Source of the DNA: Escherichia coli
Lineage (GTDB): Bacteria; Pseudomonadota; Gammaproteobacteria; Enterobacterales; Enterobacteriaceae
DNA length: 64,000 nt
Strand: one strand, 5' to 3'
Assembly (NCBI RefSeq): GCF_050320075.1
Contig: NZ_CP190018.1
The position numbers and the translations under genes were made by a program. The notes below the pieces were generated by a model that saw only the letters and a list, made by a program, of their open reading frames with translations, was not told the DNA's origin and did not search any database. This document shows positions 9,409 to 28,516 of the stretch, in pieces (the stretch's first letter is position 1; the number at the start of each line of letters is the position of its first letter).

Positions 9409-9785
<377 letters not shown>

Positions 9786-9794
9786 GATTTACGT

Positions 9795-9826
9795 AAAAAC
9801 CCGCTTCGGCGGGTTTTTGCTTTTGG
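9795..9826 (+). terminator. rnpB rho-independent terminator
   Basis: AAAAACCCGCTTCGGCGGGTTTTTGCTTTTGG: GC-rich hairpin with flanking A and T runs. Confidence 0.85.
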
Positions 9827-9906
9827 AGGGGCAGAAAGATGAATGACTGTCCACGACACTATACCCAAAAGAAAGCGGCTTATCGGTCAGTTTCACCTGG
9901 TTTAAC

Positions 9907-9946
9907 GAAAACCCGCCAGCGTAAACTGGCGGGTTTTTGCTTTTTG
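9907..9946 (+). terminator. Second terminator-like hairpin in the duplicated unit
   Basis: AAAACCCGCCAGCGTAAACTGGCGGGTTTTTGCTTTTTGG. Confidence 0.75.
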
Positions 9947-10012
9947 GAGCATAGTGTAAGATGAATAAATATCTACGGTATTAATAATAGACTTTGTAAG
10001 AAATTATTAAGT

Positions 10013-11200
10013 CTATATTGCATTTAAAAGGTCGTAATCATACGTATAGTCCTCTCTGGTAAAATATTGCTTCTCTGAATTATATGCTTCATATGTGTTA
10101 TATTTTACAACCTCAAAGCAATTGTCAGGAGAATTTTCGTCTTTCTCGAGTGTATTATCTGAAAGGAATTCCTCTGAGCTAGAATCCTCTATGTTTAAAT
10201 CTGTATTGTAATTATTTTTTGGATCGATAAGATAAGCATTTTCTTTGACGCTTTCATAATCTTTAATGATTATATCGATGTAATAATCTATTTTTTCTGA
10301 TGAGAATGCTTTCATCTCTGGTAATCTAATTCTGTTCAAGTAATTGTTAATTTTCGATGAGCTTTTATATATTTCTTTTGTTAATTCATTTTCTAATTCA
10401 TCTGTTAGAGTTGCTCTTGGTATAGATTCTATAATTGCAAGTCTCATAATTTTTAATTGTTCTTCGGTAATATCTCCAAGCGCATTTAAACAACTTTCGA
10501 CAAGCTTAATTTTTTCTTCAGAATACATATCGCTAATGCTTGTTATAACAGGCGTTATTTTTAGTAAATAATCCCAGGAGATTGTGGCGTTTTGTGTTGA
10601 ACTAACGAAATTTACCTGAAACATGTTGGCATTAGTAAAATCTGTGTCATCCAATTTAAAAGGATTTAAAATTGTATTGGCCATATGTTTATCTGTAAAA
10701 TCATAAAGTTCTAAATCGACATTCCGTAAGTCCAGAGAGGATAGATCAACTATACCTCCAGTCCCACAACTAAAGATTACGTTCAACCTCCTGATTTCAT
10801 TGTAAATGTCTTTCAATGGGCAATTAACATTGATATTGCCTGTGGATATTTCCTGGTTTTTTAACGGTTCATTAATGGTAAGTTCACAGGTATTGTCTGA
10901 TCGTTGAATAATTCGGGCGTTATAACCAAAAAAATCCATACGAAGAGACGAATCATTATAAAGAATTACATTTTGTAAGTACGCTAATTCTTTTTGAAAA
11001 TCACCAGTGATAATGCATTTCCCACCTGGTTGTAGCGCGTTAAGTAAAGTGACCATTTCAATAGAGGTCTGTTTTAGTTTTTCTATACCTGGTGCTAGTG
11101 CTTCGAGGTTATTAACTATGGGGCTTTCAGGAAGATCATTTATTTTTCGACGGGCTAAATCACTACTAATATCATTACCAATTGATGAAACAGGGGACAT
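10013..11200 (-). CDS. yhaC: Uncharacterised protein YhaC
   Basis: 395-aa ORF in strongly AT-rich DNA; recognised as the K-12 yhaC product by sequence and position between rnpB and tdcR. Confidence 0.8.
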   Translation of the reverse strand: MSPVSSIGNDISSDLARRKINDLPESPIVNNLEALAPGIEKLKQTSIEMVTLLNALQPGGKCIITGDFQKELAYLQNVILYNDSSLRMDFFGYNARIIQRSDNTCELTINEPLKNQEISTGNINVNCPLKDIYNEIRRLNVIFSCGTGGIVDLSSLDLRNVDLELYDFTDKHMANTILNPFKLDDTDFTNANMFQVNFVSSTQNATISWDYLLKITPVITSISDMYSEEKIKLVESCLNALGDITEEQLKIMRLAIIESIPRATLTDELENELTKEIYKSSSKINNYLNRIRLPEMKAFSSEKIDYYIDIIIKDYESVKENAYLIDPKNNYNTDLNIEDSSSEEFLSDNTLEKDENSPDNCFEVVKYNTYEAYNSEKQYFTREDYTYDYDLLNAI

Positions 11201-11221
11201 TATTTTATCCTTTATAAATAA

Positions 11222-11791
11222 TCAATAAAAATCATTATTAAAATGATCGGGTGAAAAAAAGAGAATTTGCCAACAATCTGAAGGAATGGAGGTTTTATTA
11301 AAGTACGTAGGGGGGGTTAAGATGGCTTCTTTTCGGGTGAATTTTGCACAATACTTAGAAATCGTCTCCTTAATACACTCCAGCTCTTTTTTATTGACGG
11401 CTGAGCAAGTACATTGTTCGCCAAAAGGTGCAAAAGTGCCTACATCTAATGTTTGTATGATATAATCGTCATGTTCTCCTGTAGAAATATCTATGATGAA
11501 TGGACTCATATTTTCCGGTTGGATTCGGATCATGACAGAAGGAACATCGCCTTGATAGAAATTCAATGCAGTAATTGCAGATAATACTCTCCGCAGTTCA
11601 TTACTTATACTGTATATTTTATTAACGTCATTGGTGGAGACAATTTCTGCAAACTTTCTTTTTACCGTCCAATAATCAATATTTCTGTTGTGATTGTTAA
11701 CCACTGCGTGCATTGGCGGGATTGAAGGGTGAAAAATATGTGCAATTGGGAAGCCTTTCATTGATGCCTGCCTTGTCATCATGACAAACAA
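11222..11791 (-). CDS. yhaB: Uncharacterised protein YhaB
   Basis: 189-codon ORF (true start may be a few codons in); AT-rich; position next to yhaC. Confidence 0.75.
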   Translation of the reverse strand: MFVMMTRQASMKGFPIAHIFHPSIPPMHAVVNNHNRNIDYWTVKRKFAEIVSTNDVNKIYSISNELRRVLSAITALNFYQGDVPSVMIRIQPENMSPFIIDISTGEHDDYIIQTLDVGTFAPFGEQCTCSAVNKKELECIKETISKYCAKFTRKEAILTPPTYFNKTSIPSDCWQILFFSPDHFNNDFY

Positions 11792-12016
11792 TAATAGATG
11801 CTTATTTTCCTCGCAGGGTTCTTTCGCACTATCAAAAAACGCTCATTTACCCGGCGTTACAGTAAACGAAGCAACATTCTGTGGCCTACGCCGATCAAAA
11901 GCTCTGTGAAAATTTCCCTTGTTGTCTTTGTCTGACCTTATCGCGGCGACCAGCAATTATTCGTTTTGTGATCCTCAACACAAAATGCTATTCGTCGCCT
12001 ATGAGGGGAGAGGAAT

Positions 12017-12235
12017 TTATGGAAAACGATTGCATTCACAAAATGACATCCTGTCAGAAGAGAAAAAGTTGACGTTAATCAATTGTTCGAGATGATCAAT
12101 ACCTGTATTCGAAATTTTAAAATATTGATAAAATAAATGTTTGTTCTTCAACAAATAACGTGAAAAAATGTGACGTGCCGCATTATTTATCGCTGAAAAT
12201 GGTTTATTTATAATAAAATTTGAGAACTTGCTCAT
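12017..12235 (-). CDS. tdcR: Threonine dehydratase operon activator TdcR
   Basis: 72 aa from ATG 12235 (MSKFSNFIINKPFSAINNAARHIFSRYLLKNK...); in-frame upstream extension to 12373 exists; divergent from tdcA. Confidence 0.7.
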   Translation of the reverse strand: MSKFSNFIINKPFSAINNAARHIFSRYLLKNKHLFYQYFKISNTGIDHLEQLINVNFFSSDRMSFCECNRFP

Positions 12236-12470
12236 TAAATTTAACTCAAATTTTGCCTGGTAATTATCCGGTAATTGCTTGAAATATGGTCTCAGCCCCT
12301 TTTTTGTATTAACCACATAACGAATGATGTTATCGCCATAAAATATGGTTATCCCCGTCATTTTTTTTGACAAAAATCAGGGTTTATGCTGATTTTTATA
12401 CTTTAACTTATTGATATGTAAAGATATTTAATTGGAATAACGATACCATGGAAAGTATTGAAAGTTAATT

Positions 12471-12486
12471 TGTGAGTGGTCGCACA
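12471..12486. promoter_or_regulatory. Candidate CRP site in the tdc promoter (TGTGAGTGGTCGCACA)
   Basis: Matches TGTGA-N6-TCACA at 9 of 10 half-site positions, about 65-80 bp upstream of the tdcA ATG; the tdc operon is known to be CRP-dependent. Confidence 0.55.
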
Positions 12487-12549
12487 TATCCTGTTCATTT
12501 CATTTTGATACACTTCATGCCGTCACTGAGGTAATTAACGTAGGTCGTT

Positions 12550-13488
12550 ATGAGCACTATTCTTCTTCCGAAAACGCAGCACCTGGTAGTCTTTCAGGAA
12601 GTCATTAGAAGTGGCTCTATCGGCTCGGCTGCAAAAGAATTAGGGTTAACTCAACCGGCCGTCAGTAAAATCATTAACGATATTGAAGATTATTTTGGCG
12701 TGGAATTAGTGGTGCGGAAAAATACCGGTGTAACACTAACACCTGCCGGTCAATTGTTACTCTCCCGTTCTGAATCCATTACCCGTGAAATGAAAAATAT
12801 GGTTAATGAGATAAGCGGTATGTCTTCTGAGGCGGTGGTGGAAGTCTCATTTGGTTTTCCTTCATTGATTGGTTTTACTTTTATGTCCGGGATGATCAAC
12901 AAGTTCAAAGAGGTGTTCCCGAAAGCGCAGGTTTCTATGTATGAAGCGCAACTGTCTTCGTTCTTACCGGCAATCCGCGACGGTCGACTGGATTTTGCGA
13001 TTGGTACGTTAAGCGCAGAAATGAAGCTTCAGGATTTACATGTTGAGCCGCTGTTCGAGTCCGAGTTTGTGCTGGTAGCCAGTAAGTCCCGAACATGCAC
13101 CGGCACCACCACGCTGGAGTCGTTGAAGAACGAACAGTGGGTGTTGCCACAAACCAATATGGGGTACTACAGCGAGCTACTTACTACGTTACAAAGAAAT
13201 GGCATCAGTATTGAAAACATCGTTAAAACCGACTCAGTCGTGACAATTTATAATCTTGTTCTCAATGCTGATTTCTTAACTGTAATTCCTTGTGATATGA
13301 CATCACCTTTTGGTTCAAATCAATTTATTACTATTCCGGTTGAAGAAACATTACCTGTGGCACAATATGCCGCGGTATGGTCGAAAAATTATCGTATTAA
13401 AAAAGCAGCATCGGTTTTGGTGGAATTAGCCAAAGAGTATTCATCTTATAATGGGTGTAGACGAAGGCAATTAATTGAAGTTGGTTAG
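12550..13488 (+). CDS. tdcA: LysR-type transcriptional activator of the tdc operon
   Basis: 312-aa ORF with N-terminal HTH (LTQPAVSKIINDIEDYFG). Confidence 0.92.
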   Translation: MSTILLPKTQHLVVFQEVIRSGSIGSAAKELGLTQPAVSKIINDIEDYFGVELVVRKNTGVTLTPAGQLLLSRSESITREMKNMVNEISGMSSEAVVEVSFGFPSLIGFTFMSGMINKFKEVFPKAQVSMYEAQLSSFLPAIRDGRLDFAIGTLSAEMKLQDLHVEPLFESEFVLVASKSRTCTGTTTLESLKNEQWVLPQTNMGYYSELLTTLQRNGISIENIVKTDSVVTIYNLVLNADFLTVIPCDMTSPFGSNQFITIPVEETLPVAQYAAVWSKNYRIKKAASVLVELAKEYSSYNGCRRRQLIEVG

Positions 13489-13586
13489 TTATTTGTTTTT
13501 ATTTAAACATAAATAATCCACCTGTCTGTTTTGCAGGTGTCGGTTACGGTTACCTACATATTTAATTCAGGCTAAGAGGTTTTATA

Positions 13587-14576
13587 ATGCATATTACATA
13601 CGATCTCCCGGTTGCTATTGATGACATCATTGAAGCGAAACAACGACTGGCTGGGCGAATTTATAAAACAGGCATGCCTCGCTCCAACTATTTTAGTGAA
13701 CGTTGCAAAGGTGAAATATTCCTCAAATTCGAAAACATGCAGCGTACCGGTTCATTTAAAATTCGTGGCGCATTTAATAAATTAAGTTCACTGACCGATG
13801 CGGAAAAACGTAAAGGTGTAGTGGCCTGCTCTGCGGGCAACCATGCGCAAGGGGTTTCCCTCTCCTGCGCGATGCTGGGTATCGACGGTAAAGTGGTGAT
13901 GCCAAAAGGCGCGCCGAAATCCAAAGTAGCGGCAACGTGCGACTACTCTGCAGAAGTCGTTCTGCATGGTGATAACTTCAACGACACTATCGCTAAAGTG
14001 AGCGAAATTGTCGAAATGGAAGGCCGTATTTTTATCCCACCTTATGATGATCCGAAAGTGATTGCTGGCCAGGGAACGATTGGCCTGGAAATTATGGAAG
14101 ATCTCTATGATGTCGATAATGTGATTGTGCCAATTGGTGGTGGCGGTTTAATTGCTGGTATTGCGGTGGCAATAAAATCTATTAACCCGACCATTCGTGT
14201 TATTGGCGTACAGTCAGAAAACGTTCACGGCATGGCGGCTTCTTTCCACTCCGGAGAAATAACCACGCACCGAACTACCGGCACCCTGGCGGATGGTTGT
14301 GATGTCTCCCGCCCGGGTAATTTAACTTACGAAATCGTTCGTGAATTAGTCGATGACATCGTGCTGGTCAGCGAAGACGAAATCAGAAACAGTATGATTG
14401 CCTTAATTCAGCGCAATAAAGTCGTCACCGAAGGCGCAGGCGCTCTGGCATGTGCTGCATTATTAAGCGGTAAATTAGACCAATATATTCAAAACAGAAA
14501 AACCGTCAGTATTATTTCCGGCGGCAATATCGATCTTTCTCGCGTCTCTCAAATCACCGGTTTCGTTGACGCTTAA
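13587..14576 (+). CDS. tdcB: Catabolic threonine dehydratase (PLP-dependent)
   Basis: 329-aa ORF with PLP lysine motif SFKIRGA. Confidence 0.93.
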
Positions 14577-26274: not shown

Positions 26275-26631
26275 TTAATTTGAACCAAACTTCGGATCGT
26301 TTCCGTAACGATTGCTGCCAGAATTGCCTTCTAAACAGGCAAATACAAACAGAACTAACCAGCCAATGACCGGTACCAGATAGAGAAGCGCCCACGCACC
26401 TGAACGGTCAGTATCGTGCAGACGACGAACGCACAGAGCAATGACCGGAATGATTGTTGCTGCCAGGTAAATGAGAGAAAGGAATGGAAACTCTAAACCT
26501 AAAATCAATTGAATGACATTGATAATAGCGCCGACGATGGCGTTAATCAGAGTAAACATCCAGTACTCTTTACGACGTGCGCGACCAGAGAAACCAACAT
26601 AATTTTTTAATACGGCTAAATACCACTGCAT
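26275..26631 (-). CDS. yhaI: DUF805 inner-membrane protein
   Basis: 118-aa ORF, paralogous to adjacent yhaH (shared MQWYL/MDWYL...VLKNYVGF...RRKEYWMF motifs). Confidence 0.85.
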   Translation of the reverse strand: MQWYLAVLKNYVGFSGRARRKEYWMFTLINAIVGAIINVIQLILGLEFPFLSLIYLAATIIPVIALCVRRLHDTDRSGAWALLYLVPVIGWLVLFVFACLEGNSGSNRYGNDPKFGSN

Positions 26632-26872
26632 AAAAACATCCCTTTAATTAAAAGTGACGAAAGTCTATTCCGGGTATTGTGTAAATGCTATTCGTATCTT
26701 TCTTTTTCGGATGTTATAAAGGTTTTGATATTTAAGATAAATACATGGTTATTTTTTATATGTAATTTATATAACGACATTGAAATATTTTAAATAAACA
26801 TTAGTAAATTATTCATTCATCAACATGATGATAAAAGCCGGATGAGTCAGACATCCGGCGAGTAGATTTGTT

Positions 26873-27238
26873 TTAAGGTTCCAGTTTTGGATCAGGTCCA
26901 AAGCGGTTTTCGCCTGGCGTACCCGCCTGGCAGTTAAAGACGATGATAATAAGCCAGCCGATAAACGGGATTAAGAATAGCAGTGCCCACCACGCCGAGC
27001 GGTCGGTGTCGTGCAGGCGGCGGAACTGAACTGCCCACCATGGTAAAAACACCAGAATACCGTAGATTGTCGTCAGGATGCCTTCGCCACCGGCACGTTG
27101 CCAGCCTAACATTTTATCCAGTAGCCCCAGCACGAACGTAAAGATGATGTTGACCAGAATAAACATCCAGTACTCTTTGCGCCGCGCACGACCCCGGAAA
27201 CCGACATAATTTTTTAGTACTTTCAGATACCAGTCCAT
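26873..27238 (-). CDS. yhaH: DUF805 inner-membrane protein
   Basis: 121 aa from ATG 27238 (MDWYLKVLKNYVGFRGRARRKEYWMF...). Confidence 0.85.
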   Translation of the reverse strand: MDWYLKVLKNYVGFRGRARRKEYWMFILVNIIFTFVLGLLDKMLGWQRAGGEGILTTIYGILVFLPWWAVQFRRLHDTDRSAWWALLFLIPFIGWLIIIVFNCQAGTPGENRFGPDPKLEP

Positions 27239-27378
27239 TTTTGCCTCAATTTTGCTCAATCACTTGTTTTTAAAGCAGCAAATTAAGAATAGACGTGAAT
27301 GAAATGGCAGTAAATATTCGTTCAAGGAATTAATAAAGTGCCGTGAAGGCGCGCTAAGACTGATGACAAGCGCAAAAT

Positions 27379-27475
27379 CGCCAGATGCGCTACGCTTATC
27401 TGGCCTACGCGGCATTGTAACATATTGAATATAAACGTTTTGTAGGTTGGAGAAGACGTTCACGCCGCATCCGAC
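27379..27475. repeat. REP cluster (BIME-like)
   Basis: CGCCAGATGCGCTACGCTTATCTGGCCTAC plus GACGTTCACGCCGCATCCGAC. Confidence 0.75.
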
Positions 27476-27504
27476 ATAAATAACACGCACTTAGCTAATA
27501 ATCA

Positions 27505-27531
27505 GAGGCACCCCGTAAGGTGCCTTTTTTT
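27505..27531 (-). terminator. Hairpin at the yqjG 3' end, possible bidirectional terminator
   Basis: GGCACC-CCGTAA-GGTGCC with a T-run on the plus strand and an A-run then U-rich tail on the minus strand. Confidence 0.45.
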
Positions 27532-28516
27532 AACCGAAGCGAACATCTCGTCCATGCGGTTCATCGAGATCCTGCCACGGACCAATTGAAATAATCCCCG
27601 TAGGGTTGATGGTCTTATGACTGCGGAAGTAATGATTACGGATGTGATCGAAATTGACGGTTTCGGCAATCCCCGGCATCTGGTAGATATCTCGCAGGAA
27701 ACCATACAGGTTCAGGTAATCGCTGATGCGGTGCTTATCACACTTGAAGTGGGTGACATACACCGGATCAAAACGCACCAGCGTGGTCCACAGGCGAATA
27801 TCGGCTTCGGTTAGCTGGTTGCCGGTCAGGTAACGATGCTGGCCTAAAATCTGCTCCAGTCGCGCCAGCGATTCAAACACTTTCACTACCGCCTCGTCGT
27901 AGGCTTGCTGGCTGGTGGCAAAACCGGCTTTATACACGCCATTGTTAACGGTGTCATAAATCCAGCCGTTAAGTTCGTCAATTTTCGTTTGCAGGGCTGA
28001 TGGGTAGTAATCACCCGCTTTCGCGCCCAGCGCATCAAACGCGGTATTGAACATGCGGATGATTTCTGCTGATTCGTTGCTGACGATGGTGTGGTTCTTT
28101 TTGTCCCACAGCACGGGAACAGTAACTCGTCCGCTGTAGTGTGGATCGGCGTGGAGATAAAGCTGATACAGAAATTCATGTTGATAGAGCGTATCTCCGG
28201 TTGCACCCGGAAAACTGTCATCAAATGTCCAGCCGTTTTCCAGCATCAGCGGGTTCACTACGGAAACGGAAATAAACGGTTCCAGTCCTTTGAGTTTACG
28301 CATGATCAGCGTGCGGTGCGCCCACGGGCAGGCGAGTGAAACATAGAGATGATAACGATCTTTCTCTGCGATAAAACCGCCTGTGCCAGTGGGGCCTGGC
28401 GCGCCATCGGCAGTGAGCCAGTTACGAAATGCGGAAGCTGAACGTTGAAATTTACCGCCGGTAGATTTGGTATCGTACCAGGTGTCATGCCAGACGCCGT
28501 CAATCAGTTGACCCAT
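27530..28516 (-). CDS. yqjG: Glutathionyl-hydroquinone reductase (Xi-class GST)
   Basis: 328 aa from ATG 28516 (MGQLIDGVWHDTWYDTKSTGGKFQRSASAFRNW...), GGAGG RBS. Confidence 0.9.
   Translation of the reverse strand: MGQLIDGVWHDTWYDTKSTGGKFQRSASAFRNWLTADGAPGPTGTGGFIAEKDRYHLYVSLACPWAHRTLIMRKLKGLEPFISVSVVNPLMLENGWTFDDSFPGATGDTLYQHEFLYQLYLHADPHYSGRVTVPVLWDKKNHTIVSNESAEIIRMFNTAFDALGAKAGDYYPSALQTKIDELNGWIYDTVNNGVYKAGFATSQQAYDEAVVKVFESLARLEQILGQHRYLTGNQLTEADIRLWTTLVRFDPVYVTHFKCDKHRISDYLNLYGFLRDIYQMPGIAETVNFDHIRNHYFRSHKTINPTGIISIGPWQDLDEPHGRDVRFG

Follow-up and report, generated by a model that had tools for sequence, protein, structure and literature searches.

What kind of DNA separates rnpB from the tdc operon of Escherichia coli, and was all of it acquired from elsewhere? 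The window analysed here, a 64-kb stretch of E. coli DNA that is 100% identical to the corresponding sequence of strain CFSAN061763, contains at positions 10013–12373 a strongly AT-rich block, which the original prediction had attributed to horizontally acquired, H-NS-silenced DNA. We find that this block is real but composite: it consists of a yhaB-yhaC cassette and of the adjoining, ancestral control region of the tdc operon. An accessory cassette of 2.0 kb, orphan and old, lying beside ancestral AT-rich regulatory DNA that includes tdcR, is in our view the probable explanation of the locus.

Gene content and base composition

The proposed gene names yhaC, yhaB and tdcR were right: in the identical sequence, the RefSeq annotation lists a YhaC family protein together with yhaB and tdcR, and NCBIfam models recognize both YhaC and TdcR. 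The left anchor of the region is rnpB, the gene for the RNase P RNA (9409–9785, plus strand; full-length match to Rfam RF00010 with 318.6 bits, and RefSeq), and the right anchor is tdcA (12550–13488, plus strand; RefSeq and 64 orthologous loci). Between them, all on the minus strand, lie yhaC (10013–11200; 395 amino acids; NCBIfam NF007262, 858 bits at a cutoff of 765), yhaB (11222–11761; 179 amino acids; RefSeq annotation) and tdcR (12017–12235; 72 amino acids; NCBIfam NF008507, 173.6 bits at a cutoff of 100). yhaB precedes yhaC by 21 bp and points the same way, the arrangement of an operon. The right edge originally assigned to the block (12373) corresponds to the start of a longer open reading frame of 118 amino acids beginning with TTG and not to the RefSeq tdcR gene, and the AT-rich stretch continues past it up to tdcA (12549). 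Weak Rfam matches to the rnk leader, OmrA-B and RsmY were set aside as occurring by chance or as stemming from the terminator repeats of rnpB.

That the block is much more AT-rich than its surroundings was borne out: its GC content is 34.0%, against 50.8% for the whole window. Sliding segments of 2361 bp across the 64 kb have a mean GC content of 0.508 (sd 0.039) and a minimum of 0.336 at position 9951; the block is thus the deepest 2.4-kb GC trough in the 64 kb, and its base composition lies more than 4 sd under the window mean, as expected of a xenogeneic island. The individual genes are similarly poor in GC (yhaC 0.322, yhaB 0.368, tdcR 0.303, versus 0.532 for garK and 0.464 for tdcB), and yhaC departs from 38 long open reading frames of the same window in its GC3 (0.27 versus 0.58 ± 0.076) and in its share of rare codons (8.6% versus 2.9 ± 1.9%). 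The encoded proteins are, as had been noted, rich in residues such as Asn, Ile, Lys and Tyr; the combined share of F/Y/M/I/N/K is 0.37–0.50, compared with 0.23–0.28 in GarK, TdcA and TdcB.

A cassette beside ancestral tdc control DNA

The gene order garK-rnpB-tdcA is kept across dozens of species, and comparison of this site across Enterobacteriaceae separates the AT-rich block into its two parts. The yhaB-yhaC cassette is missing there in Citrobacter, Salmonella, Enterobacter, Kluyvera and every other genus sampled, and also in several Escherichia species (E. fergusonii is not part of the species sample). Homology to such empty sites ends at about 9977 on the left and restarts at 11944–11964 on the right, edges that delimit an Escherichia-restricted cassette at 9978–11953 with a GC content of 0.341. 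Spacers between rnpB and tdcA that lack yhaBC mostly measure about 650–850 bp (range 644–1118 bp), with a GC content of 0.32–0.40. Other genera fill the slot with PTS, MCP or DeoR regulator genes, or with a PAAR-pyocin DNase and its immunity gene; when compared with YhaB and YhaC, these cargo reading frames bore no resemblance to either.

The remaining part of the block, positions 11954–12549 (about 0.6 kb, or about a quarter of the AT-rich block; GC content 0.319), has a nucleotide identity of 65–67% to Citrobacter and Enterobacter and of 75–86% to other Escherichia species. Since genera without yhaBC have homologues of this control region that are just as rich in AT, it is ancestral regulatory DNA and not an import. 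The proposed horizontal acquisition is therefore supported for the cassette, which is an orphan and absent from the site elsewhere, and not supported for 11954–12549. As an open reading frame, tdcR is restricted to Escherichia; it is intact in most species of the genus, and broken at loci L011 and L012 and in Citrobacter (locus L018). The ancestral region carries at its distal edge a CRP-type palindrome, TGTGTTGAGGATCACA (11967–11982, minus strand), an exact match to the published K-12 'yhaB' CRP footprint site (PMC12871828). A role as a yhaB-specific regulatory site was rejected, since genera devoid of yhaBC conserve the palindrome as well.

Immediately to the left of the cassette, two tandem 113-bp repeats (9745–9970, plus strand; 79% identity in a repeat search) each comprise the last 41 nucleotides of rnpB and a terminator hairpin, a terminator-like hairpin being located at 9906–9939. 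Their copy number differs among strains (four to five in a K-12 derivative, and varied in other Escherichia species), and they are present in species without yhaBC as well. A repeat copy at the opposite edge of the cassette, which would be an att-type signature, was sought and is absent; nor did the cassette yield an integrase, a pair of flanking att repeats, a tRNA or a recognizable donor, so that it is from distribution and composition that we infer acquisition.

A word-indexed search of 5.8 billion proteins retrieved no homologues of YhaB or YhaC outside E. coli/Shigella, and an exhaustive HMMER search covering 1.84 billion representatives retrieved none of YhaC. The E. coli/Shigella homologues of YhaB are uniformly tagged PF27690/UCP004546. 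A tblastn search of phages for yhaBC returned nothing, and none were found on true plasmids, the apparent plasmid matches being mislabelled chromosomes (records of 4.8–4.9 Mb) and, in one case, a 354-kb record whose origin is unclear. Scans against Pfam, NCBIfam, PADLOC and PHROGs contributed no functional domain except for a sub-threshold pentapeptide match. With their narrow clade and their coding constraint, yhaB and yhaC qualify as orphan genes.

Age and distribution of the cassette

Sequence comparisons within the genus indicate that the cassette is old, not recent, and that it was probably present before E. coli and E. albertii split. It is carried by 4319 of the 5426 complete E. coli genomes, and most of the others keep only a 103-bp remnant of yhaB; 20% of the complete genomes (B2-type) have nothing but deletion scars, which correspond to YhaB residues 1–34, YhaC residues 91–111 and YhaC residues 383–395. 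A yhaB remnant also occurs in E. albertii (YhaB residues 8–46, E 3e-8), which implies that the cassette predates E. coli itself, and in this species cassette and flanks have diverged in step (nucleotide identities of 73% and 75%, respectively). Clean empty sites, with edges that coincide with those in Citrobacter, are found in E. whittamii and in Escherichia E1V33, 8794 and E69; they are compatible with the cassette never having been present as well as with its precise loss. A yhaC fragment in Escherichia sp. MOD1-EC7003 was not relied on (nucleotide E 4e-7, protein E only 0.09–0.24).

Coding status and allelic diversity

Both yhaB and yhaC look like real coding sequences under moderate purifying selection, as judged from their substitution patterns. 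yhaC has dN/dS ratios of 0.27–0.36 and yhaB one of 0.25, the reading frames are uninterrupted across about 25% nucleotide divergence, and Shine-Dalgarno sequences are conserved for both genes (in yhaC AAGGA, 8 nt ahead of the ATG). Within E. coli, the dS between allele classes of yhaBC amounts to 0.49–0.63, versus 0.06–0.12 in the flanks, and equals the dS that separates E. coli from the other species of its genus at garK and tdcA. One chimeric allele, reflecting recombination between the classes, was found, and truncated or fused alleles occur.

A pentapeptide-repeat module in YhaC

YhaC had been described as a protein without assignable motif. This proved incorrect: residues 151–200 (10601–10750, minus strand) appear to form a short pentapeptide-repeat module, as register score, allele conservation and profile searches all suggest, with sub-threshold Pfam scores (PF13599, 14.7 bits at a gathering cutoff of 38; PF00805, 12.4 bits at a cutoff of 20.2). 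The segment reads as ten consecutive pentads (VDLSS LDLRN VDLEL YDFTD KHMAN TILNP FKLDD TDFTN ANMFQ VNFVS) whose register score is 17, a value that no other frame approaches beyond 10. Every pentad has L, F or M at its centre, with D or N in front of it in seven of them; these ten central residues are all invariant across alleles, versus 17 of the 40 other positions (Fisher p 0.0008). A YhaC profile retrieves true pentapeptide-repeat proteins with E-values of 1e-9 to 8e-4, in every case via residues 151–200, and a sequence profile search of the PDB gave marginal matches to Np275/Np276. A PDB match to 5,10-methylenetetrahydrofolate dehydrogenase (E 0.004) is likely spurious.

Structure prediction did not succeed for either protein: the AlphaFold2 models are unusable (mean pLDDT of 34 for YhaC with a 15-sequence alignment, and of 36 for YhaB with eight sequences). 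YhaC is acidic (pI 4.4) and has no membrane segment. We picture YhaC as a cytoplasmic protein with a predicted pentapeptide-repeat β-helix of about 2.5 turns; this short helix being its sole recognizable element, protein-protein contacts or mimicry would most likely be its business, rather than catalysis.

H-NS and the origin of yhaBC

In K-12, yhaC is bound by H-NS in all ChIP-chip studies and predicted to be foreign, the spacer between tdcA and tdcR is bound in two such studies, and both are listed as promoter islands with foreign-gene predictions (PMC3661553, Table 1). In our sequence, H-NS motifs number 3.5 per kb versus 1.4, a 2.5-fold enrichment that AT content alone would predict, and there are 17 promoter-like sites where 11.1 ± 2.8 are expected. 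Going by the K-12 literature, the AT-rich DNA would be coated by H-NS and yhaBC would be essentially silent during laboratory growth. We suggest that the cassette came into, or originated in, an early Escherichia ancestor in the slot directly downstream of the rnpB terminator repeats, and that it has since kept its GC content of 34% and been lost repeatedly through deletion.

Among the other explanations, yhaBC might be a conflict module (a toxin/immunity pair, an anti-phage defence or a secreted effector pair) under diversifying or balancing selection, a reading that we regard as unlikely. It draws on the presence/absence polymorphism, on the deep and recombining allele classes, on the PAAR-pyocin toxin/immunity pairs that occupy the same slot in Citrobacter, on a C-terminal tail of YhaC that has a dN/dS of about 1 and yet ends in an invariant motif (YTYxYDLLNxI), and on the reported rank of yhaC among the top positively selected genes of wastewater E. 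coli (PMC9110714). However, recombination among old alleles can mimic positive selection, dN/dS over the whole gene is well below 1, and the divergent haplotype is so rare (19 of 5426 genomes) that introgression fits better than balancing selection. Moreover, yhaBC have no PADLOC match, PHROGs E-values are 0.011 or worse, and Pfam contains no toxin or immunity domain for either protein. Equally speculative is a broader version of this idea, in which yhaBC would be a module for conflict or interaction, ancient and specific to the genus, in which YhaC as a pentapeptide-repeat scaffold acts together with a small partner, with alleles under selection and AT-richness maintained for the sake of H-NS control. 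If this were true, species-level allele classes would be kept in E. coli, or re-imported into it, by selection and not by drift, and the YhaC scaffold would pair a fast-evolving acidic tail with an invariant C-terminal motif.

A birth of both genes de novo from AT-rich non-coding DNA of an Escherichia ancestor, without any transfer, would agree with the lack of homologues among the 1.84 billion representatives, the AT-rich, low-complexity sequence, the failure of AlphaFold2 to fold either protein and the placement of the operon, homogeneous in age, in a young phylostratum (PMC12218254). We nevertheless consider it distinctly improbable. The ancestral spacer, about 650–850 bp long, contains nothing that corresponds to the roughly 2 kb of cassette DNA, which must hence have had some source; that 395 codons should stay open by chance at 34% GC has a probability of about 1e-13 in a base-composition calculation, and in its period-5 module YhaC matches genuine pentapeptide-repeat proteins.

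The entire 2.4-kb block, tdcR included, could also have been regarded as a single, recent genomic island silenced by H-NS, given the uniformly low GC content over 9978–12549 and the shared H-NS binding and foreign-gene predictions of yhaC and the tdcA/tdcR spacer in K-12. We judge this very improbable, as the synteny comparison has already largely refuted it: the control region with tdcR has equally AT-rich homologues in genera without yhaBC, the E. albertii cassette diverged in step with its flanks, and integrase, flanking direct repeat and donor are all absent. That the two reading frames are decaying, non-functional relics, as their dispensability, their deletion in 20% of genomes, the truncated or fused alleles and the missing AlphaFold2 fold might suggest, is barely credible in view of dN/dS ratios of 0.25–0.36, frames open across a dS of about 0.6, invariant period-5 residues and conserved Shine-Dalgarno sites.

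Relation to known systems and significance

An accessory cassette next to ancestral control DNA has much in common with the H-NS-silenced, AT-rich accessory loci of E. coli such as the bgl operon (PMC2646131) and the 'promoter islands' (PMC3661553, PMC7054387). They share with yhaBC a very low GC content, reported H-NS occupancy in K-12, a surplus of promoter-like sites, lineage-linked presence, absence or deletion, a silence in the laboratory that is presumed for yhaBC, and dispensability, which for yhaBC is shown by its deletion from strain DGF-298 with its reduced genome (PMC10652928). The bgl operon differs in that its catabolic function is known and that other genera have homologues of it, neither of which applies to yhaBC, and the part of the present block with tdcR and the tdc control DNA is ancestral and not accessory.

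The E. coli ORFans, or taxonomically restricted genes (Daubin and Ochman, 2004; phylostrata in PMC12218254), likewise resemble yhaBC: they are AT-rich and fast-evolving, with a dN/dS above that of core genes and homologues only within the genus. yhaBC are a two-gene operon of uniform age, and yhaC stands apart from the ORFans by its unusual length of 395 amino acids, its repeat module and its apparent persistence since before the split of E. coli and E. albertii. With pentapeptide-repeat proteins (PF00805/PF13599; Qnr, MfpA, Np275/Np276), YhaC shares in-register pentads with a central L, F or M that is mostly preceded by D or N. Its module, however, would have only about 2.5 turns, while Qnr and MfpA have at least eight, scores below the Pfam thresholds and has unique N- and C-terminal regions on either side; nothing points to gyrase protection or DNA mimicry. 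Finally, as in integrative islands that sit where genes for stable RNAs (tRNA, tmRNA) have their 3' ends, the slot lies downstream of an RNA gene with a duplicated 3' end and its cargo differs by genus, but the rnpB repeats are tandem, lie on one side only and occur also in species that lack yhaBC, and there is no integrase.

The locus as such was already known, since H-NS binding and foreign-gene predictions have been published for K-12, and our analysis adds some new detail; it is a textbook-style AT-rich orphan cassette whose significance is mainly one of annotation. AT-richness alone over-calls foreign DNA here, because regulatory DNA of ancestral origin makes up a quarter of the block, and an old cassette that has not drifted toward the GC content of its host bears on models of amelioration. 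Across Enterobacteriaceae, accessory genes recurrently occupy the slot between rnpB and tdcA.

A composite low-GC block between rnpB and tdcA

Positions 9800-12549 of the window are 100% identical to E. coli strain CFSAN061763, in which RefSeq annotates the gene order garK, rnpB, YhaC family protein, yhaB, tdcR, tdcA. This annotation places yhaC (10013-11200), yhaB (11222-11761) and tdcR (12017-12235) on the minus strand and tdcA (12550-13488) on the plus strand, as is rnpB (9409-9785; Rfam, 318.6 bits), and it confirms the names yhaC, yhaB and tdcR given in the original prediction. The AT-richness claimed there for 10013-12373 was borne out by computation: the GC content of this segment is 0.340 versus 0.508 for the whole window, and no other 2.36-kb stretch in the 64 kb has a lower GC content than the one it includes, which lies more than 4 standard deviations under the mean. 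The codon profile agrees, with a GC3 of 0.27 in yhaC versus 0.58 ± 0.076 in 38 long ORFs; the share of rare codons in yhaC is three times the usual one, and the proteins of the block are enriched in F, Y, M, I, N and K. GC is lower than the window average in tdcA (0.426) and tdcB (0.464) as well (12550-14576), so that the AT-rich zone fades gradually into the tdc operon and has no sharp end at tdcR. A second, milder trough (about 0.41) lies at about 26300-27600 and coincides with a pair of DUF805 membrane-protein genes, yhaH and the gene beside it, adjoining yhaJ.

Through a TdcA-anchored retrieval, 64 loci from species-representative genomes were compared. The order garK-rnpB-spacer-tdcA is kept in Escherichia, Citrobacter, Enterobacter, Kluyvera, Lelliottia, Trabulsiella, Silvania, Pseudocitrobacter, Yokenella and others, and the short rnpB-tdcA spacers mostly measure about 650-850 bp (range 644-1118) and are themselves AT-rich (GC 0.32-0.40). 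In nucleotide alignments, 11944/11964-12547 is homologous to the spacer of Citrobacter and Enterobacter (65-67% identity), and no counterpart of about 9978-11953 was found in it. The part with tdcR and the tdc control region (GC 0.319) is therefore old regulatory DNA, and the lineage-specific part of the block is the yhaB-yhaC cassette only (1976 bp, GC 0.341). The proposal of horizontally acquired, H-NS-silenced DNA is thus partly supported: it holds in kind for the cassette, which lacks a counterpart in other genera, and fails for the tdcR/control segment, which has a homologous spacer there. Three public contigs (loci L007, L041 and L066) are apparently mislabelled: a MAG contig labelled 'uncultured Bacteroides sp.' is E. 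coli (TdcA 100%, yhaBC present), as opposed to the 'Chryseobacterium sp. 18061' and 'uncultured Clostridium sp.' contigs, which have an enterobacterial tdcA.

Distribution, age and loss of the cassette

When 5.8 billion proteins were searched with a word index, homologues of YhaC and YhaB were confined to E. coli/Shigella, and for YhaC an exhaustive scan with HMMER over 1.84 billion representatives returned the YhaC cluster, its fragments and weak repeat-only matches, and nothing else. No phage homologues were found; the plasmid matches were mislabelled chromosomes, apart from a single 354-kb record whose origin is unclear. At least 80% of yhaB-yhaC is present in 4319 of 5426 complete E. coli genomes (79.6%), and most of the remaining ones retain just a 103-bp remnant of the yhaB 5' end. 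Scars in one B2-type strain (YhaB residues 1-34, YhaC 91-111 and YhaC 383-395) record two internal deletions in a formerly complete cassette. What E. albertii retains of YhaB is a diverged stretch covering residues 8-46 (73% nucleotide identity; tblastn E values of 3e-8 to 8e-9), adjoined by spacer DNA of 75% identity. The cassette therefore predates the split of E. coli and E. albertii. Clean empty sites in four other Escherichia lineages would fit precise loss and an original absence equally. The operon has been assigned to a young phylostratum (PMC12218254); the reduced-genome strain DGF-298 lacks it, and its deletion there is harmless (PMC10652928). The cassette is ancient and without a traceable donor, and its GC content has not drifted toward that of the host.

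The rnpB-tdcA slot

No integrase was found at the cassette. Tandem repeats of 113 bp that copy the rnpB 3' end occur on one flank only and are also present in cassette-free species; at 9745-9970, the final 41 nt of rnpB and the terminator stand in two copies. A K-12 derivative has 4-5 copies (L002 1220-1808), and other Escherichia species and Enterobacter likewise differ in copy number. The repeats were already described in the 1980s.

The slot itself is an accessory-gene hotspot, and its cargo in other genera is unrelated (L020 868-2773; L026 5347-7249; L067 5178-6440; L016/L017; L052; L042/L068): in Citrobacter, PAAR-pyocin-S DNase toxins together with immunity genes of colicin type; in Leclercia, a PAAR-pyocin-S protein in which a DNase domain was not detected; and elsewhere DeoR regulators, a chemoreceptor and a PTS of the mannose family. 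In strain 2013C-4974 (NZ_CP027587.1), an IS3-family transposase is inserted in the rnpB-tdcA block.

Coding status and deep alleles

Compared between allele classes, yhaC has a dN/dS of 0.27-0.36 and yhaB one of 0.25; the flanking garK, tdcA and tdcB have 0-0.03. Both reading frames stay open despite about 25% nucleotide divergence, each is preceded by a Shine-Dalgarno sequence, and the genes are 21 bp apart. By these sequence criteria, yhaB and yhaC appear to be coding, under a constraint that is relaxed but real. In YhaC, the acidic C-terminal tail has a dN/dS of about 1, yet its terminal motif is invariant. Truncated forms of yhaC are numerous in the protein database, and the allele P0020 is a yhaB-yhaC fusion ORF of 547 amino acids.

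A rare divergent haplotype (L004 type) occupies the same locus in 19 of 5426 genomes. Its YhaC is 63% identical, and its nucleotide identity to the window drops to 62-85% exactly between about 9700 and about 12400, with flanks at 97-100%. Its dS (0.49-0.63) is on par with that of garK and tdcA between E. coli and other Escherichia species (0.12-0.79). The YhaC allele P0028 is a clean recombinant: it is window-type over the first 245 alignment columns, and its remainder matches the rare divergent allele at 100% identity. These deep alleles are consistent with introgression from another Escherichia lineage or with an old polymorphism common to it. In view of the divergent alleles and the chimera, the positive-selection signal published for yhaC (PMC9110714) should not be taken at face value.

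The YhaC and YhaB proteins

YhaC is acidic (pI 4.4), and no membrane segment was found in it. Although it had been described as having no assignable motif, its residues 151-200 form ten pentads in register, whose central L/F/M is invariant across alleles in 10 of 10 cases, versus 17 of 40 other positions (Fisher p 0.0008). Matches to the Pfam pentapeptide models fall under threshold and PDB matches of the YhaC profile are marginal; the profile reaches true pentapeptide-repeat proteins (E values of 1e-9 to 8e-4) solely via residues 151-200. This segment is most probably a short pentapeptide-repeat module of about 2.5 turns, and YhaC is not Qnr-like. YhaB has no recognisable feature; AlphaFold2 gave no usable fold for YhaC or YhaB (pLDDT 34 and 36), and PADLOC and PHROGs scans returned no match.

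The CRP-type palindrome and tdcR

A CRP-type palindrome at 11967-11982 coincides with a K-12 CRP footprint 'upstream of yhaB' (PMC12871828, a 2026 footprinting preprint). Since it is also conserved in genera that lack yhaBC (Citrobacter, Enterobacter, Kluyvera and others), we reject it as a regulator of yhaB; it is instead an ancestral element at the distal end of the tdc control DNA.

The tdcR ORF occurs in Escherichia only and is broken in some species though the surrounding DNA is conserved (loci L011, L012 and L018): a stop codon interrupts it in 'E. coli' SCPM-O-B-8794, its ATG is missing in E. albertii, and the corresponding region of Citrobacter sedlakii contains many stops, the DNA being conserved nonetheless. 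Between the window and K-12, its dN/dS is about 1.1, calculated from few changes. The status of tdcR as a protein regulator could merit re-examination.

H-NS and a possible role of the operon

In published compilations for K-12, a 706-bp 'promoter island' within yhaC is listed as bound by H-NS in every ChIP-chip study and the spacer between tdcA and tdcR in two of them, and earlier methods had predicted both to be foreign (PMC3661553, Table 1). The block has somewhat more promoter-like sites than expected (17 versus 11.1 ± 2.8), and the H-NS motif is enriched 2.5-fold, which equals the expectation from AT content alone. The locus has already been described in the literature, as have its H-NS binding and its foreign-gene predictions in K-12, so that little of this is new. 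Our best guess is that yhaBC forms a dispensable orphan operon silenced by H-NS, and that its larger product, YhaC, would act via a short pentapeptide-repeat interaction surface.
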